Shown here: in pieces, positions 671 to 13,955 of the stretch
Position numbering within the stretch: the first letter of the stretch is position 1
How the letters are laid out: every line of letters begins with the position of its first letter
Assembly: GCF_003334765.1 (NCBI RefSeq)
Contig: NZ_QOWT01000055.1
Length of the DNA stretch: 13,955 nt
Strand: one strand, 5' to 3'
Source of the DNA: Escherichia coli
GTDB lineage: Bacteria; Pseudomonadota; Gammaproteobacteria; Enterobacterales; Enterobacteriaceae
Notes under the pieces: generated by a model
The model's database searches: none
Told to the model about the DNA's origin: nothing
What the model saw: only the letters and a program-made list of their open reading frames with translations
Made by a program: the position numbers and the translations under genes

Positions 671-3067
671 ATGCACGAAAAGAACATCGCCCTGCTTTGT
701 GATGAAGCCGACCGACTTTTGCAACTGAACATTAATCTGCTCCGGCAAATGGTTGAGGAGCCAGATGTGTTATCTGACAGTAAGAACGAAAACAGACTGC
801 TTTTTGATAAACAGAAAGCACTGAAAAGAATTGAGGAGCTGGAGGGCGAACAAATCAAAACCGCCCGCAGGGAGATGGTGCTGGCTGTTGTCGGCACGAT
901 GAAAGCAGGCAAATCAACCACCATCAATGCCATTGTGGGGCAGGAAATTCTGCCTAACCGTAACCGCCCCATGACCTCTGTACCGACGCTCATCCGCCAC
1001 GTTCCCGGAAAAACTGAGCCGGTTCTCCATCTGGAACATATTCAGCCTGTCCGCAATTTATTAATCACACTGCAGGAAAAACTCGCCACCCCGGCAGGAC
1101 AGCAGGTCGCACAGACCCTGCAGCAAACCGGGGATACCCGCGAACTGCTGGATATTCTGACGGATGATGGCTGGCTCAAAAATGAATACCACGGGGAGGA
1201 GGAAATCTTTACCGGACTGGCATCGTTAAACGATCTGGTTCGTCTTGCTGCGGCAATGGGGACTGAATTTCCTTTTGATGAATACGCAGAAGTGCAGAAA
1301 CTGCCGGTGATCGACGTGGAATTCAGCCATCTGGTGGGGATGGATGCATGCCAGGGAACACTCACACTGCTGGATACCCCCGGCCCTAATGAGGCCGGAC
1401 AACCGCAGATGGAAGTGATGATGCGGGATCAACTGCAGAAAGCCTCTGCGGTTCTGGCTGTGATGGATTACACCCAGATGAACTCAAAAGCGGATGAAGA
1501 CGTCCGTAAAGAGCTTAATGCCATTGCTGACGTATCAGCCGGCCGCCTGTTTGTACTGGTCAATAAATTTGATGAGAAAGACCGCAATGGCGATGGGGCA
1601 GATGCCGTACGCCAGAAAGTTCCGGCAATGCTGAACAGCGATGTGCTGCCCGCCTCCCGCGTTTATCCCGGATCCTCACGCCAGGCATACCTGGCTAACC
1701 GTGCGCTTCATGAGTTACGGAAAAACGGAACCCTTCCTGTTGATGAAGCCTGGGTCGATGATTTTATCAGAGGTGCCTTCGGTTGCATGAAAAAAGAATA
1801 CGTCTGTAAAGACAGTGAACTGGCAACTGAAGGGGCGACAGACCTGTGGGAAGGCTCACTTATCGATCAACTGATAACGGAAGTCATACAGAGCTCACAT
1901 TCCAGAGCTGCGGCACTGGCGGTTGACTCTGCCGCCGCAAAACTGATGCAGAATGCAGAAAATATCAGTGAATACCTGTTGTTACGCCATCAGGGGCTAC
2001 AGCAAAGCATTCAGTCACTGCAGTCGCATATCACCAGCCTGCTTGCGGATATCCGGGAAATCGCGGACTGTCAGGAGCAGATGACCACTGATGTCAGAAT
2101 GGCCATGGAGGAGATCGATACTAAAACCCGGGAATTACTGACGGGGGTCTGCACCTCACTGGAAGAGGAGCTGAATGACTATTTCAGAAGCGGTAAACGC
2201 AAAGAACAGCAAATGCTGGAGGAAGAAGACGCAGAACAACGAAGGTCTCAGTCCGGATTATGGGGGAAAATTTCTCAATGGTCCGGTATCAACAACCAGG
2301 GCCGGGAGGATTACAGGAAACGAGATTTTGCCCCGGACAGCCCCGAAATAAAATTCAGTGATCGCAGGGAAGCCCTTGAACTGATGACGCAAATCGAATC
2401 GACCGTGACCAGCCTGCACCGTGAGGCTGAAGCACAGTTCCGGCCTGAGCTGGAGAAAATCGTCAGCGGGATTGAAACAGGTTTTCGTGGCACGGCCCTG
2501 TACGCCACAGAAAACATTGCCGGTCGCATCAATGCCCGCCTGGAGGATGAGGGCTTTACCGTAAAAATCAGTTTTCCGGCAGTCAGCCAGTTACAGACCC
2601 GGCTCGCGGTAAAAATAAATCTGAGTGCGCTTATGGAGGAAAGAACGGAGACCGTCACCCGTCGCCGTCGGCAGAGTGGCGTATGGGGAACCGTTTGTCG
2701 ATGGTTTGGCACCAGTGACCTGGGCTGGGAAAACTATGACGAGGATGTGAGTCGCAGCGTGATCAATATCAACAAGGTCAGAGAGGAAGTTATGTCACTG
2801 ACCCGGGCATATTTCGGGGAGCTGCAGGCATCCATTGAGCAGGATATTAACCAGCCCGTCCGCCAGGAAATCGATGCCTTTTTCTGCGCATTCAGGGAGA
2901 AAGTTGAACAACTGCGTAACACGCTGATTCAGAGCTCTGAGGATCATAAACGCGATCAGCAGGCGCAGGAACGACTTACCGGGCGACTTCAGGCATTAAA
3001 TGAAAGGGTTCCTGAGCTCATTACTGACAGTAAGGCGCTGAGGGAAGAGCTGGAGACAATGCTGTGA
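671..3067 (+). CDS. Bacterial dynamin-like GTPase, paralogue of CrfC/RdcA (YjdA), 798 aa
   Basis: Long ORF with an AGGAAGG Shine-Dalgarno at 656-662. G1 GTMKAGKST is at aa 75-83 (nt 893-919), G3 DTPG at aa 235-238 and G4 NKFD at aa 298-301. The N-terminal GTPase region (LAVVGTMKAGKSTTINAIVGQEILPNRNRPMT...) closely resembles E. coli CrfC as I remember it. A long helical stalk and a C-terminal coiled coil follow. Confidence 0.9.
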   Translation: MHEKNIALLCDEADRLLQLNINLLRQMVEEPDVLSDSKNENRLLFDKQKALKRIEELEGEQIKTARREMVLAVVGTMKAGKSTTINAIVGQEILPNRNRPMTSVPTLIRHVPGKTEPVLHLEHIQPVRNLLITLQEKLATPAGQQVAQTLQQTGDTRELLDILTDDGWLKNEYHGEEEIFTGLASLNDLVRLAAAMGTEFPFDEYAEVQKLPVIDVEFSHLVGMDACQGTLTLLDTPGPNEAGQPQMEVMMRDQLQKASAVLAVMDYTQMNSKADEDVRKELNAIADVSAGRLFVLVNKFDEKDRNGDGADAVRQKVPAMLNSDVLPASRVYPGSSRQAYLANRALHELRKNGTLPVDEAWVDDFIRGAFGCMKKEYVCKDSELATEGATDLWEGSLIDQLITEVIQSSHSRAAALAVDSAAAKLMQNAENISEYLLLRHQGLQQSIQSLQSHITSLLADIREIADCQEQMTTDVRMAMEEIDTKTRELLTGVCTSLEEELNDYFRSGKRKEQQMLEEEDAEQRRSQSGLWGKISQWSGINNQGREDYRKRDFAPDSPEIKFSDRREALELMTQIESTVTSLHREAEAQFRPELEKIVSGIETGFRGTALYATENIAGRINARLEDEGFTVKISFPAVSQLQTRLAVKINLSALMEERTETVTRRRRQSGVWGTVCRWFGTSDLGWENYDEDVSRSVININKVREEVMSLTRAYFGELQASIEQDINQPVRQEIDAFFCAFREKVEQLRNTLIQSSEDHKRDQQAQERLTGRLQALNERVPELITDSKALREELETML

Positions 3068-4467
3068 CTTCACCATTTATTCAACAAATTGCTGATAACC
3101 GGGTATGTCAGGTACTCACCTGTCTTCCTGAAAAATTTGTGGTTGATTTCGCAAACGGAATCGATGTTGCACAGGAGCATATCCGCACGGCCGGAGAGCG
3201 CACGTTCTTCCGGCGTTTAAAAGAGGGGCTGACCGGCGAAGGCGCTGCACGGCAGAATGCCATCAATGCGTCGCTTGCACAGGGCGTTGAGGCGTCCCTG
3301 CGCTGGCTGACGGAGATGACAACGTCACTTGCCACCACAAACTACGCGATTACCCAGGTAAACGACAGGGTCAGTTCACTGGTCAGTGATACAGCCAGGC
3401 TGGCGCATTATTCCGCAGATACGCGGGAGCAGTTACTCACCCTGGCCGATCAGGTTCACCATAAACTGAATCATCTTGAAGAAAAACTCCACCGTGTTGA
3501 CCAGGTTCAGCGGGCGCAGTTACATCTTGAGCAGATATTCTCATGGTGGAGCGCCGGGCGATATGCGTCATTTTCCCCTGCCGGACGTTGTTATGTGGCA
3601 CTTGAAGAGCTTCGCTGGGGCGCGTTTGGTGATGTGATACGTCAGGGCGAAACAGGCCAGGTTAACCAGCTACTGGATATTCTCAGACATAAAGCATTAA
3701 CGCAGATGGCACAGGAGAGTGGCGGTAGTGCAACCGTGCGTCTGAACACTCTGGACTGGCTTGGTGGTCAGGGCCGGGAGCAGGCAGATAACGAGTGGCA
3801 TGACGCGATTAACTGGCTGGGAGACTGGTGCAGTGAAGAGCAGCATCCGGTGACCCGTGTGCGCGACCCGGGCCGCCGGGGATACACAAAACACATGCTG
3901 CGTCTGCGGCGGGCCGGAGAGATAAACGGAGAACATGTCCCTGAAATTATTCTGCTCAACTCTCATGACGGTACCTCCAGCTACCAGATGCTGCCGGGTT
4001 ACTTCAGGTTCGTCTGCCAGAACGGGTGCGTCTGTGGCCAGTCTCTGGGGGAAGTGCGTGTTCCACACCGGGGAAATGTAGTGGAGAAAGTTATCGAAGG
4101 GGCTTACGAGGTGGTGGGCGTGTTTGACCGGATAGAGGAGAAGCGTGATGCCATGCAGTCGCTGGTCCTGCCGCCACCGGCACGCCAGGCGCTGGCACAG
4201 GCGGCACTGACTTACCGTTATGGTGACGAACATCAGCCCGTCACCACCGCCGACATTCTGACGCCGCGACGCCGGGAGGATTACGGTAAGGACCTGTGGA
4301 GCGCATATCAGACCATCCAGGAGAATATGCTGAAAGGCGGGATTTCCGGTCGCAGTGCAAAAGGAAAACGTATCCATACCCGGGCCATTCACAGCATTGA
4401 TACCGACATTAAGCTCAATCGCGCATTGTGGGTGATGGCAGAAACGATGCTGGAGAGCCTGCGCTGA
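3064..4467 (+). CDS. Chimeric ORF: RdcB/YjcZ-like dynamin-partner domain (aa 1-263) fused in frame to the C-terminal ~204 aa of a DUF932 protein (YfjQ/YafZ family)
   Basis: The GTG start overlaps the upstream stop as GTGA (3064-3067), implying translational coupling. From nt ~3853 (TRVRDPGRRGYTKHMLRLRRAGE...WVMAETMLESLR) the translation matches the YfjQ/YafZ family from about residue 70 to the end, as I recall it. The N-terminal part is coiled-coil rich (RQNAINASL..., YSADTREQL...) like the YjcZ partner encoded next to crfC. Confidence 0.8.
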   Translation: MTSPFIQQIADNRVCQVLTCLPEKFVVDFANGIDVAQEHIRTAGERTFFRRLKEGLTGEGAARQNAINASLAQGVEASLRWLTEMTTSLATTNYAITQVNDRVSSLVSDTARLAHYSADTREQLLTLADQVHHKLNHLEEKLHRVDQVQRAQLHLEQIFSWWSAGRYASFSPAGRCYVALEELRWGAFGDVIRQGETGQVNQLLDILRHKALTQMAQESGGSATVRLNTLDWLGGQGREQADNEWHDAINWLGDWCSEEQHPVTRVRDPGRRGYTKHMLRLRRAGEINGEHVPEIILLNSHDGTSSYQMLPGYFRFVCQNGCVCGQSLGEVRVPHRGNVVEKVIEGAYEVVGVFDRIEEKRDAMQSLVLPPPARQALAQAALTYRYGDEHQPVTTADILTPRRREDYGKDLWSAYQTIQENMLKGGISGRSAKGKRIHTRAIHSIDTDIKLNRALWVMAETMLESLR

Positions 4468-4548
4468 TGCCGTTTCCCTGAGTGAGGGAATCATTCAGCT
4501 TTCGTTCCTGAAAAACACACATTTATTTGTTATTTAAGGAGTTATCTC

Positions 4549-5028
4549 ATGAAAACCGTTTCTCAGAATACCCCCACAATTTATTCAGCTACAACACCAG
4601 AGAATAATCCGCCTCAGTTGGTTGCCAGCCTCGTCCCTGATGAACAGCGCATCAGCTTCTGGCCGCAGCATTTTGGCCTCATTCCACAGTGGGTGACCCT
4701 GGAGCCCCGTGTCTTCGGCTGGATGGACCGTCTGTGCGAAGACTACTGCGGTGGTATCTGGAATCTGTACACCCTGAACAACGGCGGGGCATTTATGGCA
4801 CCCGAACCGGATGACGATGATGGCGAAAACTGGGTACTGTTCAATGCCATGAACGGTAACCGCGCTGAAATGAGCCCGGAAGCCGCCGGCATTGCCGCCT
4901 GTCTGATGACGTACAGTCATCATGCCTGTCGTACGGAGTGTTATGCCATGACGGTCCATTATTACCGGCTGCGGGATTACGCCCTGCAGCATCCGGAATG
5001 CAGCGCCATTATGCGCATCATCGACTGA
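4549..5028 (+). CDS. Antirestriction protein (YfjX/YafX family, ArdB/KlcA-like)
   Basis: 159-aa ORF with an AAGGAG Shine-Dalgarno at 4536-4541. The sequence and its position between DUF932 and the RadC-like gene are typical of CP4-type islands. Confidence 0.85.
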   Translation: MKTVSQNTPTIYSATTPENNPPQLVASLVPDEQRISFWPQHFGLIPQWVTLEPRVFGWMDRLCEDYCGGIWNLYTLNNGGAFMAPEPDDDDGENWVLFNAMNGNRAEMSPEAAGIAACLMTYSHHACRTECYAMTVHYYRLRDYALQHPECSAIMRIID

Positions 5029-5043
5029 ATGGAGGCAGGGACA

Positions 5044-5520
5044 ATGCAACAACTTTCCTTTCTGCCCGGAGAGATGACGCCCGGCGAGCGCAGCCTCATT
5101 CAACGGGCCCTGAAAACCCTGGACCGCCATCTTCATGAACCCGGCGTGGCCTTCACCTCCACCCGTGCAGCACGGGAATGGCTGATTCTGAACATGGCGG
5201 GACTGGAGCGTGAAGAATTCCGGGTGCTGTATCTGAATAACCAGAATCAACTGATTGCCGGTGAAACCCTCTTTACCGGCACCATCAACCGCACGGAAGT
5301 CCATCCCCGGGAAGTGATTAAACGCGCCCTGTACCACAATGCCGCTGCCGTGGTACTGGCACACAATCACCCGTCCGGTGAAGTCACACCCAGTAAGGCA
5401 GACCGGCTTATCACCGAACGTCTGGTACAGGCACTGGGCCTGGTGGATATCCGGGTGCCGGACCATCTGATAGTCGGTGGCAACCAGGTTTTCTCCTTTG
5501 CCGAACATGGTCTGCTTTAA
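5044..5520 (+). CDS. yeeS: RadC-like JAB/MPN domain protein (YeeS/YkfG/YfjY family)
   Basis: JAMM-type motif HNHPSGEVTPSKAD. GGAGG at 5031-5035 lies 8 nt before the ATG at 5044 (MQQLSFLPGE..., the N-terminus I remember for this family). The ORF track's earlier ATG at 5029 is an alternative start. Confidence 0.9.
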   Translation: MQQLSFLPGEMTPGERSLIQRALKTLDRHLHEPGVAFTSTRAAREWLILNMAGLEREEFRVLYLNNQNQLIAGETLFTGTINRTEVHPREVIKRALYHNAAAVVLAHNHPSGEVTPSKADRLITERLVQALGLVDIRVPDHLIVGGNQVFSFAEHGLL

Positions 5521-5582
5521 CCCGTCACAACCACATCACACCTGTTTTCACTTTTATCTTCTGTCTTCAGAGGTATCCCATT

Positions 5583-5804
5583 ATGAAAATTATCACCCGT
5601 GGTGAAGCCATGCGTATTCACCAACAACATCCGACATCCCGTCTTTTTCCGTTCTGTACCGGTAAATACCGCTGGCACGGCAGTGCTGAAGCGTATACCG
5701 GTCGTGAAGTGCAGGATATTCCCGGTGTGCTGGCCGTGTTTGCTGAACGCCGTAAGGACAGTTTTGGTCCGTATGTCCGGCTGATGAGCGTCACCCTGAA
5801 CTGA
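5583..5804 (+). CDS. yeeT: DUF987 protein YeeT
   Basis: The 73-aa ORF (MKIITRGEAMRIHQQHPTSRLFPFCTGKYRWHG...) matches K-12 YeeT/YkfH family length and sequence from memory. Its position is conserved. Confidence 0.9.
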   Translation: MKIITRGEAMRIHQQHPTSRLFPFCTGKYRWHGSAEAYTGREVQDIPGVLAVFAERRKDSFGPYVRLMSVTLN

Positions 5805-5877
5805 GTGGGAATTCTGATGAGCAGAATTATCGCCACTACCGGACCATTCTTAGCCGATTTTCTGTAAGGATTTTATC

Positions 5878-6246
5878 GTGTCAGACACACTCCCCGGGAC
5901 AACACTTCCCGACGACAATCACGACCGCCCCTGGTGGGGGCTGCCCTGCACCGTGACGCCCTGTTTCGGGGCACGTCTGGTGCAGGAGGGTAACCGGTTG
6001 CATTACCTTGCCGACCGCGCCGGTATCAGAGGCCTGTTCAGCGATGCAGATGCGTACCACCTGGACCAGGCCTTTCCGCTGCTGATGAAACAACTGGAAC
6101 TCGTGCTCACCAGCGGTGAACTGAATCCCCGCCATCAGCATACCGTCACGCTGTATGCAAAAGGGCTGACCTGCAAAGCCGATACCCTCAGCAGTTGTGG
6201 TTACGTTTATCTGGCTGTTTATCCGACGCCCGAAATGAAAAATTAA
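5878..6246 (+). CDS. cbeA: Type IV antitoxin CbeA (YeeU)
   Basis: 122 aa with a GTG start and an AAGGA Shine-Dalgarno at 5866-5870. The sequence is near-identical to K-12 CbeA as recalled (SDTLPGTTLPDDNHDRPWWGLPCTVTPCFGARLVQEGNRLHYLADRAG...). Confidence 0.95.
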   Translation: MSDTLPGTTLPDDNHDRPWWGLPCTVTPCFGARLVQEGNRLHYLADRAGIRGLFSDADAYHLDQAFPLLMKQLELVLTSGELNPRHQHTVTLYAKGLTCKADTLSSCGYVYLAVYPTPEMKN

Positions 6247-6334
6247 CTCTCCAGAATAGCCTTCTGCTACGGCCTGGTGTTTTCACCACGCCACTTTTCC
6301 ATTTTTATATCTGCATATCAGGAAAATCTTCAGT

Positions 6335-6709
6335 ATGAAAACATTACCTGTATTACCCGGGCAGGCGACCAGTTCTCGCCCGTCTCCTGTTGAAATCTGG
6401 CAGATACTGCTGTCCCGACTGCTGGACCAGCACTATGGCCTCACACTGAATGACACACCTTTTGCCGATGAACGTGTGATTGAGCAGCATATTGAGGCAG
6501 GCATTTCACTGTGTGATGCGGTGAACTTTCTCGTGGAAAAATACGCGCTGGTGCGTACCGACCAGCCGGGATTCAGCGCCTGTACCCGCTCTCAGTTAAT
6601 AAACAGCATCGATATCCTCCGGGCTCGCAGGGCGACCGGCCTGATGACCCGCGACAATTACAGAACGGTAAATAACATTACCCTGGGTAAGTATCCGGAG
6701 GCGAAATGA
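6335..6709 (+). CDS. cbtA: Type IV toxin CbtA (YeeV), inhibitor of FtsZ/MreB polymerisation
   Basis: 124 aa (MKTLPVLPGQATSSRPSPVEIWQILLSRLLDQHYGLTLNDTPF...), near-identical to K-12 CbtA as recalled. It lies immediately downstream of cbeA. Confidence 0.95.
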   Translation: MKTLPVLPGQATSSRPSPVEIWQILLSRLLDQHYGLTLNDTPFADERVIEQHIEAGISLCDAVNFLVEKYALVRTDQPGFSACTRSQLINSIDILRARRATGLMTRDNYRTVNNITLGKYPEAK

Positions 6710-6900
6710 TGACACTGGAAGCCGACAGCGTTAACGTACAGGCGCTGGATATGGGGCACATTGTCGTTGACATTGATGGTGTTAATATCACTGAACTGAT
6801 TAATAAGGCCGCTGAAAAAGGTTATTCACTCCGCGTGGTGGATGACCGTGACTCTACCGAAACACCGGCAACTTATGCCAGCCCTCACCAGTTGCTGTAA
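6706..6900 (+). CDS. yeeW: YeeW-family small protein
   Basis: 64-aa ORF whose start overlaps the cbtA stop as ATGA (6706-6709). It matches K-12 YeeW/YpjJ family length and position. Confidence 0.8.
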   Translation: MMTLEADSVNVQALDMGHIVVDIDGVNITELINKAAEKGYSLRVVDDRDSTETPATYASPHQLL

Positions 6901-7055
6901 GACAATGCAGTGATGCAGGGTATAGTGCCATTAACCACAGAAACAGCACTGTTGTCCTGTATTAAGCAGGCAAGAGAAGATGTCCTTACCCTGCGCCATC
7001 TGCAGCTTCTGCACCAGAACCGGTGAATCTCACTCAACAGGCTTCATTTCCCCTG

Positions 7056-7085
7056 ACGCCAGCCTGAATACAGCTGGCGTTTTCA
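7056..7085 (+). terminator. Rho-independent terminator candidate
   Basis: Perfect 8-bp stem ACGCCAGC (7056-7063) / GCTGGCGT (7073-7080) with a 9-nt loop, followed by TTTCATTT. Confidence 0.6.
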
Positions 7086-7184
7086 TTTATAAACAGAAAG
7101 GAAAACCGATAATAATGGAATGGACGCCCCGACCATGAAGCAACGGTAGGATATTACTGATAAACCTTCCAGTGGAGGTGCGTT

Positions 7185-7265
7185 ATGGCCGTTTTAACGA
7201 TTAGCATTGACCTGACAAAAAATGAATTCCAAATCCACGGTCTGGGTAGGAACAGAAAAATCTAA
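7185..7265 (+). mobile_element. N-terminal remnant (26 codons) of an IS110/IS1111-family (DEDD) transposase
   Basis: GGAGG at 7174-7178, then MAVLTISIDLTKNEFQIHGLGRNRKI*. The I(G/S)IDL(G/T)KN.F.IH pattern is the typical N-terminus of IS110/IS1111 transposases. The ORF stops after 26 codons. Confidence 0.55.
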
Positions 7266-7314
7266 GCTCAGAAAACGGATTAAAGTAAGCGTCAACGGAG
7301 CACCGTATTGACGC

Positions 7315-7450
7315 TTATTTATTGGTGAGAACTACGTTCCATGGCAGGAGTTCGTCAACACGGTTGGAGGGCCATTCCGGCAGTATGCTCAGAATATGGC
7401 GCAGATACGCTTCCGGATCGATACCGTTCAGACGGCAGGTGCCTGCTTTT
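7315..7450 (-). mobile_element. C-terminal remnant of an IS66-family transposase
   Basis: The minus-strand translation ...GTCRLNGIDPEAYLRHILSILPEWPSNRVDELLPWNVVLTNK* ends at the TAA at 7317-7315. This is the characteristic C-terminus of IS66-family TnpC proteins. The upstream boundary is approximate. Confidence 0.7.
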
Positions 7451-7469
7451 CCGGCAACAAGCAGGAATC

Positions 7470-7697
7470 TCAGCGCTGAAGCAGGAATTAGAGGTAAAAA
7501 CGCCCTACCGGGCCATGAATCACCCGGTCATTGGAGTAGTAACCAAAGCAGATTTAGCCAGCATGGAACAAATATCTTTGGTGAAAAGTTGGTTACGGGA
7601 AGCTGGAGCGCACAACGTGTTAGTAACCAGTGCAGTTAATAACAATGGAGTTACAGAACTTTTTGCCTTGCTGCATACAGAAGAAGGCTGTTGTTAA
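7470..7697 (+). pseudogene. yoeF: C-terminal fragment of a EutP/PduV-family GTPase (yoeF-like pseudogene)
   Basis: The translation ...YRAMNHPVIGVVTKADLASMEQISLVKSWLREAGAHNVLVTSAVNNNGVTELFALL... resembles the C-terminal half of PduV/EutP. No P-loop N-terminus is present. The upstream part of the 118-aa ORF is antisense to the IS66 remnant. The start coordinate is approximate. Confidence 0.65.
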
Positions 7698-7755
7698 TTT
7701 CGATTGGTTCTCAGATGAGAATGATGACGGTGATACACAGATAAGAATCAATGAG

Positions 7756-7784
7756 CAATGAGGGTTGCCGGGCAACCCTCATTG
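7756..7784. terminator. Perfect 14-bp inverted repeat between convergent yoeF-like fragment and yeeX; probable bidirectional terminator/stem-loop
   Basis: CAATGAGGGTTGCC (7756-7769) and GGCAACCCTCATTG (7771-7784) are exact reverse complements. The repeat lies 14 nt downstream of the yeeX stop. No strong U-tract on either strand. Confidence 0.5.
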
Positions 7785-7797
7785 AATAAAACGGGAA

Positions 7798-8127
7798 TTA
7801 CTTCGCTTCGCCGTTTTTCATTTCGCCCATAGCTTTCAGCTTTTTGGAGATATCGCGGCGTTCTTTGGAGAGCTCGGCATTTTTGATGATGTAATCGTCA
7901 ACGCGATCTTCATAGTCACCTTTCATGCTGGCGATGATGCCCTGGATTGCTTCAACGCTCATCCCTGGCTTGATGTAATCGCTCAGGTTGTCCAGCAACA
8001 GGACGCGCTTCTGGTTGTCACGGATCTTTTTCTCAACGTCCTGAATTTCACGTTGCAGTTTGTTCTTACGACGGAACAGACGAACAAATTCCAGTACGTC
8101 CTGGAATGAAGGCTTGGTAGTTTCCAT
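7798..8127 (-). CDS. yeeX: UPF0265/DUF496 protein YeeX
   Basis: The translation [39 protein letters not shown]... (109 aa) matches K-12 YeeX. The ORF track's 131-aa version starts at an upstream ATG (8193) that I consider less likely. Confidence 0.9.
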
Positions 8128-8298
8128 TTTTATACCCCTGATAATGTGAGAGTCGGATTCGTTTAAGCAACCGCTATTCGTTAGGGCCAACATTACTCAT
8201 AGCTGCCGCAGATGACAATGCTTTTATCCCTTTTCACTATCATACCCTTTATCCTTGCTGAATCGAAGCAGCAGCAAGATGATTCTGAAGTTCAGGAA

Positions 8299-9357
8299 TT
8301 ATTTGCGCAAGGCCCGGCAAATCAGATTCGATAGCAACTCAAGCTGATGTGCCGTTTCCATGTTCAGCCACACATAACCATAGATTGGTGTTTCCACAAC
8401 CTTCAGGTCATGGTGGTTATTCAGCAACTGACGCAGCTCTTCCACAGCATCGTTCAATTTTTCCGTATTGGCAAAAACCGGCTGCGGATTACCTTCGTAC
8501 AGCGCATGAACAAGGCTCAGCAGTATTTGCTGCATCATATGCTGGGTATCACGAAGTTTTTGCGCGTTCAATAACACGAAATGGCTGGGGCGCGTGGCCC
8601 AGTATGCATTGATTTGCAACTCCAGCATACAAACCAGATTGCGATTAATGGTCTGGATACCTTCATATATCGATTTTGGAATACGGGTTTCTTTGCTGGC
8701 GGGCGCAATCAGCCCACGCATTTTCACGGCATCGGTCAGGAGTTTTTGTAGATGGCTTTCCAGACGCGGGCGTTCGAGTAAGTTCGGTGAGAATGCAGAT
8801 TGATAGACCCGATTATACTCGGTCAGACTTTTTGCCAGTTGAATGCGCCAGTGGATGAACGCCCGTTGTGGCCAGATACCGGTAAACAACATTGCCAGTA
8901 AAGAGCCGAGGATCACATCGCCGCTTCGCCATAACGCCGTATTAATTTCACCTGTCGGGGAACCAACAACAATTGCCAGCGTCACCCCAATCAATAAACC
9001 TTGATACGGTTTCTTGCCCAGCGCCAGCCAACCGCAAAGAAACATAGCCGCCGCGCACCAGACTAACATCAGCGGTAACGAGATTAACTCCAGTTGCAGA
9101 GCGATAAGACCTAAAATCGACCCCAACACCGTACCGCCAATACGTTCGAATGCGCGAGGGACAACGTTCCCCCAGAACGAGATTGGCCCCATAATCACCA
9201 CCATGGTGACCAGCGGCCAGGTGCTTTCCGGGATAGTAAACAGGCGGATAATGAGAAAAGTGAGCAGGAATGCCAGCGCGACCCGAGTACCATGCACAAT
9301 GCGGTAATGGCGGTATACCCGGATTTCAAACGGGCTTAATGACTTATCGGCACGCAC
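8299..9357 (-). CDS. yeeA: FUSC-family inner membrane protein YeeA
   Basis: 352-aa ORF (MRADKSLSPFEIRVYRHYRIVHGTRVALAFLLTF...). Length and sequence match K-12 YeeA as recalled. It has multiple hydrophobic segments in the N-terminal half. Confidence 0.92.
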   Translation of the reverse strand: MRADKSLSPFEIRVYRHYRIVHGTRVALAFLLTFLIIRLFTIPESTWPLVTMVVIMGPISFWGNVVPRAFERIGGTVLGSILGLIALQLELISLPLMLVWCAAAMFLCGWLALGKKPYQGLLIGVTLAIVVGSPTGEINTALWRSGDVILGSLLAMLFTGIWPQRAFIHWRIQLAKSLTEYNRVYQSAFSPNLLERPRLESHLQKLLTDAVKMRGLIAPASKETRIPKSIYEGIQTINRNLVCMLELQINAYWATRPSHFVLLNAQKLRDTQHMMQQILLSLVHALYEGNPQPVFANTEKLNDAVEELRQLLNNHHDLKVVETPIYGYVWLNMETAHQLELLSNLICRALRK

Positions 9358-9554
9358 GCAGAAACTCCGTAATGAAGATTAAAAGCGCTCATAACTCATC
9401 TGTCGGCCAGAAGGCGCGCCTCTGAATTATCCGACGGACAAACCGGGAACAGTGTAATTTCCCGGCAGGAGCGAAAAAATTGAAAGGCGCATCTTACTCT
9501 TTTCGCTTTCAAAAAAAGAGTGGTCTTCGCGTCAACACACCGCCCTGAGATGAA

Positions 9555-10028
9555 TTAGTGATGTTTTGGCTGCACCGCAACATACATTTCGATATCCCAG
9601 TACCCATCTTCCGCGCCATTGTTCAAGTAAACCTCGAAGCAGGGCTTTGGTAACATTTCATAAGCACTGTCCTGCAAGAGGCTATTAAAGAACTGATACC
9701 AGGGTTTAGCAAAATCATCACCGACTACACGAGCCACCGCCACCGCATATTGACCACCTGAAATTTCTGTCAGAATGACGCCCTCACTGTTTTCGGGGAG
9801 CGTAAAGTTATTCGGTACCGTCACGACGGTGTCGCAGCGTAATTTTTCGGCGGGTGTTTCATCCGGATTGTCGTAATAGACAGCAACCCACTCCTTCGGC
9901 ACAATATTTTTGCTATCTACCCACATCATCAACTGCTCAAAACCTTTCTTTACCGTCTGTTCCCACGGGCCAACGAGATGGAAACCTGCAACGGTACGTT
10001 TATCTTCCTGCTTAATCTCGTAGTTCAT
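9555..10028 (-). CDS. sbmC: DNA gyrase inhibitor SbmC (GyrI)
   Basis: 157-aa ORF ([37 protein letters not shown]...) matching K-12 SbmC. A LexA box lies immediately upstream. Confidence 0.95.
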
Positions 10029-10042
10029 GACGCCTCCATTAT

Positions 10043-10062
10043 TACTGTTTTTATATACAGTA
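10043..10062. promoter_or_regulatory. LexA (SOS) box upstream of sbmC
   Basis: TACTGTTTTTATATACAGTA fits TACTG-N10-CAGTA (CTG-N10-CAG) perfectly. It lies 15-34 bp upstream of the sbmC start codon. sbmC is a known SOS-induced gene. Confidence 0.85.
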
Positions 10063-10146
10063 TAGTTGCAATATTAAAACCACAAGGAATGAGTGTTGAT
10101 TATGCGAGCAGACTCGCACTCCTGCCAGTCTGCTGCAAAAGAAAGG

Positions 10147-11319
10147 TCAGGCCTTATGGTGGAAATAATCACTCAGGCGAGAAAACATGCTGCCTTCCCC
10201 GACAGATTCCAGGGTAACCAGCGGCCAGTGCGCCACCTGTTTATCACGGTCGTAAAGTTCAATTTCCCCTACCCGCTGATGGGCGCTAATTGGCGCGGTG
10301 AGCTCTTTACCATTAAGGGTATATTTGGCTTTGATATGTGGAATTTCGGCTTTCGGTAGCACCATCCAGAACTCTTGTTCCGTTCCCAGGGCGATATTTT
10401 CTTTATCACCATACCAGATGCGTTCCGTACCGACCTTTTTCCTACGGTGCAAAATTTGCACCGTAGTAAAGTTTTGTTGCCCCCAACGCAGTAATTTTTT
10501 TGCCTCTTCCTCACGACCTTTTGCGCTGTCAGCACCCATTACCACTGCAATGAGGCGACGCTGCCCGTCTACAGCCGAAGCAATAAGATTAAACCCGGCA
10601 CCAGAAGTATGGCCCGTTTTCAGGCCGTCAACATTCATGGTCTTATCCCACAATAACCCGTTACGGTTTTGCTGGGTGATACCGTTCCAGGTGAGGCTTT
10701 TCTCACTGTACATATGATAAAACTCGGGCTCGCCGTGGATGATAGCGCGAGAAAGCACGGCTAAATCATAAGCCGAGCTATGCTGGCCAGGTGCATCCAG
10801 ACCATGCACTGTTTCAAAATGCGTATCCTTGAGATGCAGCTTCTCGGCATAGTTGTTCATCATTTCAACAAACTGCCGTTGCCCACCGGCAATATAGTCA
10901 GCCAGAGCAACACACGCGTCATTTCCGGAATCCACAATTAAACCTCGGCTTAAATCACGTACCGATACGCGATCGCCCTCTTTCAAAAACATCAGTGAAG
11001 AACCGACAAACACCGGATTATCTTTCGCCCACGCATCACGCCCCACGGTGACAATATCGTCTGGCGTAATGCGATGACTATCGATAGCGCGATCCACGAC
11101 ATAGCCCGTCATCAGCTTTGTCAGGCTGGCGGGATTGCGCTGTTGATGCTCATTACCCGCGGTGAGAATCTGACCGGTGGTGTAATCCATCAATACCCAG
11201 GACTCGGCATGAATCTCTGGAGGCTGAGGTGAAAAAGGAATGTTTTCCGCCGCAAAACCAGACGATAAATTAAAAACGAACAAAGAAGCAGCAATAATAA
11301 GACGGCGTTTCAACAGCAA
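10147..11319 (-). CDS. dacD: D-alanyl-D-alanine carboxypeptidase DacD (PBP6b)
   Basis: The ORF has a signal peptide (MLLKRRLIIAASLFVFNLSSGFA) and the SxxK (SLTK), SxN (SGND) and KTG (KTGHT) motifs. The ORF-track start is a TTG at 11319. The sequence matches K-12 DacD as recalled. Confidence 0.93.
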   Translation of the reverse strand: MLLKRRLIIAASLFVFNLSSGFAAENIPFSPQPPEIHAESWVLMDYTTGQILTAGNEHQQRNPASLTKLMTGYVVDRAIDSHRITPDDIVTVGRDAWAKDNPVFVGSSLMFLKEGDRVSVRDLSRGLIVDSGNDACVALADYIAGGQRQFVEMMNNYAEKLHLKDTHFETVHGLDAPGQHSSAYDLAVLSRAIIHGEPEFYHMYSEKSLTWNGITQQNRNGLLWDKTMNVDGLKTGHTSGAGFNLIASAVDGQRRLIAVVMGADSAKGREEEAKKLLRWGQQNFTTVQILHRRKKVGTERIWYGDKENIALGTEQEFWMVLPKAEIPHIKAKYTLNGKELTAPISAHQRVGEIELYDRDKQVAHWPLVTLESVGEGSMFSRLSDYFHHKA

Positions 11320-11521
11320 ACCCTCAGGTGTTTCAAATAGCTGTTCTTTTTACGGAAATACTTATGAACTGGCTGGAATAAAGTGCAAGAAAATGTGACT
11401 ACTACCTCATTTTTATCTGACATGATCTGTTGCCACTCGCTGCCAAATTGTCGCGCTAAAGCTGATTAGCACGGTGATATTTGATACTCTGGCAGACAGC
11501 AGAAATAACGGATTTAACCTA

Positions 11522-11570
11522 ATGATGAATGACGGTAAGCAACAATCTACCTTTTTGTTTCACGATTACG
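11522..11570 (+). pseudogene. sbcB: 5' stump of sbcB (exonuclease I), truncated after codon 16 by an insertion
   Basis: ATGATGAATGACGGTAAGCAACAATCTACCTTTTTGTTTCACGATTACG encodes MMNDGKQQSTFLFHDY, the N-terminus of K-12 SbcB. The expected continuation ETFG... is replaced by AQYP and a TGA at 11582-11584. The divergent position relative to dacD is as in K-12. Confidence 0.85.
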
Positions 11571-11624
11571 CGCAATACCCCTGAGAACCGCCATGAACAA
11601 GGGTTTCATGATTTGTGATTTTAG

Positions 11625-11648
11625 TTTGGTACGCAATTTGGTACGCAA
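11625..11648. repeat. Tandem direct repeat 2 x TTTGGTACGCAA
   Basis: Exact 12-bp units at 11625-11636 and 11637-11648, about 55 bp inside the foreign DNA from the sbcB junction. Confidence 0.9.
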
Positions 11649-11887
11649 CACTATTTTCACTTCAGCGGGTAGTCATCAAACTCACCATAACGAGCATCGT
11701 TGATGATGTATGCGATCACCACAAATATCACATCTGGACTAGTTCCGTCTTCATGCGCAGGTATCTGTTCACGCCTCCCTTTCTGCAAATCCTAAAGATG
11801 AGATTTTGGGGTTTTGGGATATCTTTTTCTCCTCAGTTCTCTATCCATTCTACAAAGCAGTAATGAACCATCACTATGTGAAAGTGA

Positions 11888-11959
11888 GGCATCCGCTACA
11901 TTAAGCGCAGAGAAATGATGCAGTGGTGGGCGGACTGGCTTGATGAAAAGGTGGAGTGA
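11888..11959 (+). pseudogene. 3' remnant of a P4-type (IntA/IntS-like) tyrosine integrase
   Basis: The in-frame translation GIRYIKRREMMQWWADWLDEKVE* carries the RR.MMQ.WADYLD C-terminal signature of P4-family integrases. An in-frame TGA lies immediately upstream (11885-11887). No catalytic domain is present. Confidence 0.6.
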
Positions 11960-12411
11960 ACCACCTTAGCTATCGAATGACACAAAGCCTTGTAATCCAG
12001 TGCAAAGTCTTGTGTGCCTCAGTTTTGTCTAAGCGTTCTACTGAAACATAGTAAAATCGATAACGGCTGGAGATCATTCAATATCCGCACTATTGACTCC
12101 CCTCCAATAAACCGTGTAACGTACACCGTTTATAAGACAACCAAACAATAATAGAGCGAGTGAAATCATCAGTCTCAAATACCATTTATTGACGCAATAC
12201 TATCCAGTTCTGAACTAAATGACATAATTCGGTAATTAAATTAATGCATCGACATACCTTATAGATACGCCCCAATAATATAATGCTAATCCTCTTTGAA
12301 TAGAAAACGTTCAATACTCCTCACTAAATAGCATAGTATTTATATCTTCCCTTACAAAAAAAATTAAGGCATAATAATAAGCTTCCTTTAACGCTAGATA
12401 TTGAGGTTTGT

Positions 12412-12540
12412 ATGTATCGCAGCATCGCAGCATTTAACACATTTTGCTTTTCATTGGTATTTATTTCATTAGCAAATGATATATATTACCAATTAAAACA
12501 CTCGTCATCTCTCAATACATATATTTCCTATGCATTTTGA
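12412..12540 (+). CDS. 42-codon ORF with one hydrophobic segment, in the same frame as the downstream 359-aa gene (possible severed N-terminus)
   Basis: GAGG at 12403-12406 lies 5 nt before the ATG. The translation is MYRSIAAFNTFCFSLVFISLANDIYYQLKHSSSLNTYISYAF*, with TGA at 12538-12540. Only three sense codons (GGG ATT GCC) separate that stop from the ATG at 12550, in the same reading frame. Confidence 0.35.
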   Translation: MYRSIAAFNTFCFSLVFISLANDIYYQLKHSSSLNTYISYAF

Positions 12541-12549
12541 GGGATTGCC

Positions 12550-13629
12550 ATGACATACAATACTATATTCAAAATATACATCTCAATTTTCATTTCTGTT
12601 ATTGTCACTATAATAGCCATATCCGGTATAACATTCCTGGGGGACAACTGGATTATTCCAGACACATATCATCTATTTAATACTGCAAAATATGATACCA
12701 CATTTTCACTCAGCGATATTTATTCCCAGCATAAAACATCTGTTTTATTTCTCTTTATAAACAAAGTGCTCTATAGCATAGGGTTATATTCTTTCTGTAT
12801 CGCGAACACAGCAATGATTATCTATGCTTTTTTCAAACATCACGAAGACCGTAGATTTTGTTTTGTGTTTTTGGTTTTGTCACCTCTATTTTTCATTAAT
12901 ATACCGTTACCATCCAAAGATATAATGGTGACATTTCTTTTTTGCATATGGGTATATGCAGTTTACTCTGAGGCAAGCCTGACAAAAACAATCCTGCTGT
13001 CTTTAATCATCCTATTAGTTAGAGATGGCTTTGGGATAATTTTAATTGCCACTTCAATTATCTTAAAACAAAAGATAATATATAAAGCACCAATACTACT
13101 GATTATAATAGCAACTCTCATCGCATCTTTAATATCGGATGTTTTGCCTAACTATGCAAATGACTTTTTTCTGTTCCAGAGAGTAATTGATATAGCCAAT
13201 GAATATAATAGTTCAAGTTATATTCTTCGTATATTTGGGAATGTAACAAATTTCTCATCACGCAACCCATTGATTACTGATAAGTCCACATTAAACATTA
13301 CATTTATGTGCTATACAATCACGGGAGTTACTATATTGAGTACATTCCTTCTTTCAATTAAAGCAATACGTTCAAATTATAAAAGTGATGTCAGAATATC
13401 ATTTTGTTATTTTTTAATTACCATTGCTTTTTCTATTTCACCACTTATTCAAGCAAGATACATGGCTCCGTTAATTTTAATGCCGACATTTTATAAGTGT
13501 ATTTCAAAAAAAGATGTCTTTATTTGCTATATGGCAAGCATATTTATCTCAATAATATTATCATTATTATATGTATATTTAGGTGTTTACCCTGAAAAAG
13601 CACCAGTGGAAAACTTTACAATAAATTAA
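12550..13629 (+). CDS. Polytopic inner-membrane protein (about 10-12 predicted TM segments), function unknown; Wzy/EpsG-like or GT-C/GtrC-like surface-polysaccharide enzyme is a hypothesis
   Basis: An uninterrupted 359-codon ORF in very AT-rich DNA, where random stops are frequent. GAGGGA at 12539-12544 lies 5 nt before the ATG. Hydrophobic stretches alternate with short charged loops, plus two larger loops (aa ~31-64 and ~200-250). No acyltransferase-3 N-terminal motif was seen. Confidence 0.8.
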   Translation: MTYNTIFKIYISIFISVIVTIIAISGITFLGDNWIIPDTYHLFNTAKYDTTFSLSDIYSQHKTSVLFLFINKVLYSIGLYSFCIANTAMIIYAFFKHHEDRRFCFVFLVLSPLFFINIPLPSKDIMVTFLFCIWVYAVYSEASLTKTILLSLIILLVRDGFGIILIATSIILKQKIIYKAPILLIIIATLIASLISDVLPNYANDFFLFQRVIDIANEYNSSSYILRIFGNVTNFSSRNPLITDKSTLNITFMCYTITGVTILSTFLLSIKAIRSNYKSDVRISFCYFLITIAFSISPLIQARYMAPLILMPTFYKCISKKDVFICYMASIFISIILSLLYVYLGVYPEKAPVENFTIN

Positions 13630-13646
13630 CAAGAGAAAACCACCTA

Positions 13647-13696
13647 TGGCACCATCTCACAATAATAATATGATAAACATATTAGAGATGGTGCTA
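13647..13696. terminator. Stem-loop between convergent genes (possible shared terminator)
   Basis: GCACCATCTC (13649-13658) and GAGATGGTGC (13685-13694) are exact reverse complements, extendable by T-A and G-T pairs. The loop is 26 nt and AT-rich. No clear U-tract. Confidence 0.35.
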
Positions 13697-13747
13697 CTCC
13701 GAGCCACCCACAAGCAACACATTGAATTTATTCCAAAATAATTCATC

Positions 13748-13955
13748 TTATACTTCATAAAGGGCAGGCCAGATGACATCAGGCGCGGTGCTGGTATCTG
13801 TTGCCGCCACCGCGTCAATGTAATCCAGCACAGCGTTAAGCCGGGTGGTTTCTGCCTGCGTCAGCTTCCGCCCGGCCTGTAATTTCAGCTGAATCAGACT
13901 GATGGAAGCCATTGCAGCATCAATCAGCGACTGGCGCTTTACTTCTGCCGCGTCT
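13748..13955 (-). CDS. Phage tail fibre assembly protein (Tfa family), C-terminal 68 aa (5' end outside the window)
   Basis: The minus-strand translation is DAAEVKRQSLIDAAMASISLIQLKLQAGRKLTQAETTRLNAVLDYIDAVAATDTSTAPDVIWPALYEV*, with stop at 13750-13748. The ...L..W..Y...L..VDTSTAPDI.WP ending is the hallmark of TfaE/TfaQ-type chaperones. Confidence 0.8.
   Translation of the reverse strand, partial: DAAEVKRQSLIDAAMASISLIQLKLQAGRKLTQAETTRLNAVLDYIDAVAATDTSTAPDVIWPALYEV

Follow-up and report, generated by a model that had tools for sequence, protein, structure and literature searches.

Prophages that lie inside a gene, such as phage 21 and e14 in icd and many integrators at tRNA genes, carry a copy of the gene end that they displace. 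Stx2c phages of Escherichia coli are documented to use the exonuclease I (ExoI) gene sbcB for attachment (PMC3519850, PMC4645166, PMC4159516), those of O157:H7 included (PMC3519850, PMC4645166, PMC7175801), and so is Sf101, a serotype-converting phage of Shigella flexneri (PMC4159516); phage remnants at sbcB have also been reported (PMC7175801). This literature names sbcB as the site and is silent on whether the gene is regenerated. Here, we analyze a 13,955-nucleotide stretch of E. coli DNA (contig NZ_QOWT01000055.1, assembly GCF_003334765.1), referred to as the window, in which sbcB breaks off after its first 16 codons at a boundary with phage DNA. An earlier note on this DNA, which had rightly named sbcB as an attachment site of Stx2c phages, took the strain to be ExoI deficient unless the phage end reconstitutes the gene and hinted at toxin cargo farther along the element. 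We hold with considerable confidence that the window ends sbcB at the attL junction of a type-2851 element, that the element is a remnant prophage, and that sbcB is rebuilt at attR in this strain.

The closest described elements are phages with a "type 2851" integrase. Stx2c phage 2851 and Stx2 phage 1717 have an identical attachment core and the same insertion point in the 5' end of sbcB. However, they are inducible Stx phages of 55 to 65 kb, whereas the element here, as seen in related genomes, is a 6.65-kb remnant that lacks stx, lysis, replication, immunity, and head genes and carries different cargo beside attL. Phage Sf101 has the same integrase, core, and sbcB target, as well as the same layout beside attP: a small open reading frame (ORF) of 82 codons, a same-strand membrane protein conversion gene, and an opposite-strand tail gene. 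Sf101 is a complete 38.7-kb P22-like phage with the O-acetyltransferase gene oacB, whereas the decayed phage here encodes an unrelated orphan protein with a GT-C fold. A more distant likeness is to the cryptic prophage CPS-53 (KpLE1) of E. coli K-12, which is inserted at argW with another integrase and encodes gtrABS. Its yfdR/yfdS/yfdT-type early genes are approximately 95% identical to those of the element here, and the general order of conversion gene, tfa, tail fiber stub, early genes, and excisionase is shared, but the element here lies in sbcB and has neither gtrA nor gtrB.

The attL junction of a type-2851 element in sbcB

The features at the junction are as follows.

11522..11584, plus strand: displaced native sbcB 5' end, from its translation and its identity to uninterrupted sbcB up to 11570
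11558..11570, no strand: 13-bp core TTTCACGATTACG, the attL crossover sequence, with identical copies in attB, attR, and phage attP
11571..12096, no strand: conserved int-distal arm (P') of the type-2851 attP, from identity to phage arms
11615..11863, plus strand: 82-codon ORF in the attP arm, from the ORF list, equivalent to the Sf101 hypothetical protein gp17
11627-11635 and 11639-11647 (span 11627..11647), plus strand: two direct copies of TGGTACGCA, from a motif count

Translation of 11522-11599 gives MMNDGKQQSTFLFHDY followed by AQYP*, which corresponds to 16 native SbcB codons, 4 codons of the phage arm, and a TGA at 11582-11584; the product of this stump is 20 amino acids long (MMNDGKQQSTFLFHDYAQYP*). 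The uninterrupted sbcB of BL21 is identical to the window through 11570 and then continues with AAACCTTTGG (ETFG), whereas the window goes on with CGCAATACCCC, the first differing base being 11571. Translation and the BL21 alignment thus bear out the earlier note on the gene start at 11522, the 16 intact codons, the departure after 11570, and the position of the stop codon. The catalytic role of the N-terminal Asp and Glu is established for the DEDDh family, and we take these two residues, the first catalytic acids of the protein, to be Asp15 and Glu17 (K-12 numbering) of the HDYETFG motif. The stump retains the Asp of this motif without the Glu and cannot act as an exonuclease.

The sequence TTTCACGATTACG marks the boundary between host and phage DNA and is identical in attB, in attR, and in all five free-phage attP sites examined. 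We aligned five sequences, namely, the window junction, an empty site, the other junction from a relative, and the attP sites of HK544 and Sf101. In this alignment, the window junction consists of the left side of attB and the right side of attP, and the other junction consists of the left side of attP and the right side of attB, both around the same 13-bp core. In the records of HK544 and mEp234, the core bears the annotation attP "type 2851"; in that of phage 1717, it is marked as the insertion duplication. For Sf101, it was published as CGTAATCGTGAAA (PMC4159516). It matches the published attachment core of phages with the "type 2851" integrase (2851, 1717, Sf101, HK544, and mEp234). Because the break lies at this published core, the window holds the int-distal junction (attL) of a type-2851 element.

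Past 11570, the window matches the attP right arm of the free phages HK544, mEp234, HK140, APC_JM3.2, and Sf101. The 526 bp of P' arm after the core are 95% identical to mEp234, 91% identical to both 2851 and 1717, and 92% identical to Sf101 over a shorter matched part. With the core at the breakpoint and an attP arm beyond it, the earlier description of the break as a phage-related insertion stands, and the insertion is site specific. The window itself ends inside a tail fiber assembly gene, and the right-hand side of the element was read from genomes that share the window sequence, among them BE2-5 and TC_EC10. At the other end of the element, these relatives carry the cognate tyrosine integrase and an AlpA-type excisionase. 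The integrase has 392 amino acids with Arm-DNA-bind_3 and Phage_integrase domains; the Pfam match of the AlpA protein is under the gathering score, and RefSeq names it an AlpA family gene both in TC_EC10 and in the phage entries. The int-alpA-P arm module of the relatives is 98 to 99% identical to 27 phage records, which include 2851, 1717, several Stx2c, Stx2a, and Stx1a phages, Sf101, HK544, mEp234, and HK140.

Within the P' arm, the copies of TGGTACGCA are likely candidates for arm-type Int binding sites. The motif has three matches in the window compared to 0.21 expected by chance, and it is also repeated beside int in the other arm (L001 26731-26750). The 82-codon ORF starts just upstream of these putative sites and extends across them. 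It is identical to Sf101 gp17 at 70 of 82 residues, and it has no Pfam or PHROG match and no family assignment; it may not be a gene but a by-product of conserved att DNA. By every feature that could be tested, the junction belongs to the known type-2851 sbcB system, which has already been described.

Regeneration of sbcB at the other junction in related genomes

We propose that a type-2851 tyrosine integrase inserted the element site specifically in codons 13 to 17 of sbcB, with the attL core at 11558-11570. The native promoter and first 16 codons would have been left behind as a dead 20-codon stump, and the int-proximal arm of attP would supply a mimic of the sbcB start, made up of an in-frame ATG and 15 codons (MTGTDKQPTFLFHDY). 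Recombination in the 13-bp core would then fuse this mimic to host sbcB from codon 17 onward at attR. The result would be a 474-amino-acid ExoI with both N-terminal catalytic acidic residues, the core encoding the Asp and the host side the Glu.

Both the phages and the relatives show the elements of this arrangement. The sequence ATG ACA GRC ACA GAT AAR CAA CCT ACC TTC CTC TTT CAC GAT TAC G stands in frame at all five free-phage attP sites and at the junction of prophage 1717. In the conserved TFLFHDY segment, the mimic and the host gene differ by three nucleotides, all synonymous, and nonsynonymous differences are restricted to the poorly conserved first eight residues. In BE2-5 and TC_EC10, a 474-codon ORF beginning MTGTDKQPTFLFHDYETFG lies directly after int, and its N terminus reads ...TFLFHDYETFG. 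Against the NCBIfam exodeoxyribonuclease I equivalog NF008746 (cutoff, 260), this hybrid reaches 814.7 bits over residues 5 to 473, and it aligns with the solved E. coli ExoI structures 4jrp and 1fxx over residues 5 to 474. Compared to the SbcB of BL21, 468 of 474 residues are identical, and all 6 differences fall in the first eight residues.

Inferring a knockout from the attL side fails because the in-frame ATG and 15 codons of attP fuse to the remaining sbcB. The ExoI deficiency expected by the earlier note is not supported, as a full sbcB whose 474-amino-acid product passes the equivalog is regenerated across the other junction in the relatives, the very outcome that the note had listed as counting against its view. 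Its reservation that the phage end might reconstitute the gene was well placed, and this is what is seen in the matching genomes. Conservation of the mimic and the intact ORFs suggest that the hybrid gene is expressed, with transcription from the phage arm, and the strain is most likely ExoI proficient. For this strain, the sequence shared with the relatives points to the same right-hand side, which would read ATGACAGGCACAGATAAACAACCTACCTTCCTCTTTCACGATTACGAAACC and then an open 474-codon sbcB.

We surveyed 5,426 complete E. coli genomes, counting those that cover at least 80% of a query. With a query of 8.2 kb that starts at the stump and takes in the whole of sbcB, 73 genomes reach this threshold. 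The best 60 of these 73 have 100% coverage and 99.8 to 100% identity (in 56, the match is one uninterrupted piece), and in all 60 the gene is annotated as "sbcB: exodeoxyribonuclease I." The phage-type start of sbcB, considered on its own, occurs in 582 of the 5,426 genomes. Outside E. coli and Shigella, an exact attR-specific 32-mer searched in one genome per species found no hybrid junction (the only hit was one E. coli record), although such an exact scan says little about diverged copies.

Integrators in icd and tRNA genes offer a precedent, in that attP holds a surrogate for the displaced part of the gene and the ORF is rebuilt at one junction. In the classic cases, however, the 3' end is replaced and the native promoter is kept, whereas here the replacement affects the 5' end. 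Between int and the mimic lie 181 bp of phage arm, and this segment must then supply the ATG, the leader, and presumably the promoter.

Several points weigh against a functional, rebuilt sbcB in this strain. The phage arm upstream of the hybrid ATG contains no consensus sigma-70 promoter, residues 2 to 8 of the hybrid SbcB are replaced, which may affect folding or stability, and we found no statement in the literature that ExoI activity persists in sbcB lysogens. In addition, the window stops at 13955, approximately 4.3 kb short of int and attR, leaving the right side of this strain unseen.

The main alternative is that the hybrid sbcB is intact as an ORF yet silent or strongly underexpressed, which would make the strain functionally ExoI deficient or hypomorphic. 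The phenotype would be that of the earlier note, reached by another route through loss of the native promoter and leader. The native upstream region does remain with the stump at attL, no obvious Shine-Dalgarno sequence precedes the hybrid ATG, and int is divergent, from which no phage transcript into sbcB is expected. The lack of a recognizable promoter in the phage arm also fits. However, the same scan upstream of native sbcB gave nothing credible either, and promoter and terminator counts in the P arm, upstream of native sbcB, and in the interval from attL to the cargo were at or below chance. Because the scan also missed the native sbcB promoter, it is uninformative on expression of the hybrid. 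In five attP sites and the 1717 junction, an in-frame ATG is kept together with a mimic whose changes in the conserved part are synonymous, which would make little sense if the regenerated gene were not in use. Moreover, the ORF is unbroken in both relatives translated, the exodeoxyribonuclease I annotation is universal among the 60 genomes listed, and approximately one-tenth of complete E. coli genomes have the phage-type start. We consider a silent hybrid unlikely.

Regeneration of sbcB at attR carries a caution for annotation: where a phage brings along a substitute for the displaced gene end, a truncated start at the prophage junction does not indicate a knockout. Scoring sbcB as disrupted from the attL side would lead to wrong predictions of recombination or mutator phenotypes in approximately one-tenth of complete E. 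coli genomes.

A decayed prophage in the matching genomes

The distance between cores is 6,653 bp in BE2-5 and 6,672 bp in TC_EC10. In both genomes, the order is attP arm, AT-rich cargo, tfa, a tail protein fragment, yfdR/yfdS/yfdT-type early genes, the AlpA family gene, and the 392-amino-acid tyrosine integrase, and the annotation of both contains no stx, Q, lysis, replication, immunity, or head gene in the remnant. As seen in the relatives, the element is a decayed prophage and not an Stx phage. The hint of toxin cargo is not supported, since the matching genomes hold a 6.65-kb remnant without stx, and the locus shows no sign of Shiga toxin in this lineage.

In the same set of complete genomes, 73 cover at least 80% of window positions 11300-13955, with the best 30 of the 73 at 100% identity; the stretch between the stump and the second junction likewise reaches the 80% threshold in 73. 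Many accessions are common to the 73-genome lists. From 6556 to 13955 (7.4 kb), the window is base-for-base identical to TC_EC10.

It is very unlikely that this strain instead has a complete inducible lambdoid prophage, possibly Stx converting, or has lost the attR side and with it an intact sbcB. The right junction does lie beyond the window, and the integrase module is known on Stx2c, Stx2a, and Stx1a phages in O157:H7. However, the AT-rich cargo block beside attL matches none of 50,697 phage records, the junction with its cargo is held at the 80% threshold in only 73 genomes and the remnant followed by sbcB in the same number, and the 7.4 kb up to the window end are those of TC_EC10, a remnant carrier. 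Finally, the suggestion that allelic variation or a chimeric assembly explains the divergence seen past 11570 has nothing but the abruptness of the change in its favor and can be dismissed, as the breakpoint coincides exactly with the published 13-bp core, the phage attP arm continues beyond it, and the identical junction occurs in 73 independently assembled complete genomes.

A putative conversion gene in the cargo block

Beyond the P' arm, the window contains the following features.

12097..13764, no strand: AT-rich cargo block, approximately 28 to 34% GC, from GC windows and phage comparisons
12550..13629, plus strand: orphan polytopic membrane protein gene, 359 amino acids, with a GT-C glycosyltransferase fold
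13748..13955, minus strand: 3' part of the tail fiber assembly gene (tfa), cut by the window end, from the RefSeq annotation of identical DNA

The earlier note had described everything downstream of the break as AT-rich foreign DNA ending in a tail fiber assembly gene. The base composition holds for the cargo block but not for 11571-12096, which has 41 to 44% GC, and the terminal gene is confirmed by the RefSeq annotation of identical DNA in the relatives. The tfa region is 93% identical to that of phage HK106, and the cargo block stands in for approximately 200 bp between the corresponding sequences of that phage. In Sf101, the same position is occupied by oacB.

The membrane protein gene is the only item here of some discovery value. 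RefSeq annotates only 12814-13629 of the ORF, which corresponds to the last 271 of 359 amino acids. The protein has no Pfam, NCBIfam, or PHROG match; a profile search of Protein Data Bank (PDB) sequences gave nothing, and a Foldseek search of BFVD viral structures gave nothing significant. A word-indexed search of 5.8 billion proteins returned only two clusters, and an exhaustive search returned 69 distant relatives. The structure model, built from a 38-sequence alignment, has a predicted local distance difference test (pLDDT) score of 92.7, and the predicted polytopic fold superposes on solved GT-C enzymes. By sequence, the protein falls outside the curated GT-C families PMT_2, GT87, and Glucos_trans_II/GtrC; GT87 is touched by only 1 of the 38 relatives (E value, 1.6e-4). 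An aspartate, D38, just after the first helix is invariant in the 38 relatives. A 60%-identical homologue adjoins an Acyl_transf_3 fragment, and no gtrA or gtrB partner lies beside the cargo gene. The gene sits where serotype-converting phages keep O-antigen modification genes, and it is probably a lysogenic conversion gene whose product modifies a surface glycan.

No terminator-like site was predicted between the stump and this same-strand cargo ORF. The native sbcB promoter, stranded with the stump, may drive the 82-codon ORF and the GT-C gene approximately 1 kb downstream, with ExoI left dependent on a promoter inside the Int-bound P arm; we put this forward as a doubtful possibility. If true, the prophage would have taken over a promoter of the host to serve its conversion gene, and a host DNA repair nuclease would have come under the control of a phage arm.

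Left flank and upstream differences

The host gene on the left flank of the junction is the following.

10147..11313, minus strand: dacD, from the RefSeq annotation of identical DNA in BE2-5 and TC_EC10 and from the ORF list

The left flank of dacD, sbmC, and yeeA is in the usual chromosomal order, and with dacD in this position the chromosome is collinear with the normal dacD-sbcB neighborhood.

Farther upstream, the window differs from TC_EC10, the closest relative compared. It lacks 2,854 bp at 3852/3853, comprising the 3' end of an RdcB family gene, a patatin-like phospholipase gene, two hypothetical genes, and the 5' end of a DUF932 gene. The result is an in-frame RdcB::DUF932 fusion ORF at 3064-4467 (plus strand, 467 codons), with the two sides of the junction overlapping by 2 bp (GA). 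Over 3852-13955, the window and TC_EC10 differ by 17 substitutions, every one of which falls in 4823-5524, a 700-bp segment covering the antirestriction and yeeS region, and the other 8.4 kb have none; this clustering points to a short tract of recombination between paralogous CP4-type islands. In the window, the CP4-44-like island has an intact cbtA toxin gene (6335-6709, plus strand, 124 codons), whereas the TC_EC10 copy has a 1-bp deletion, at window base 6555, and is annotated as frameshifted.
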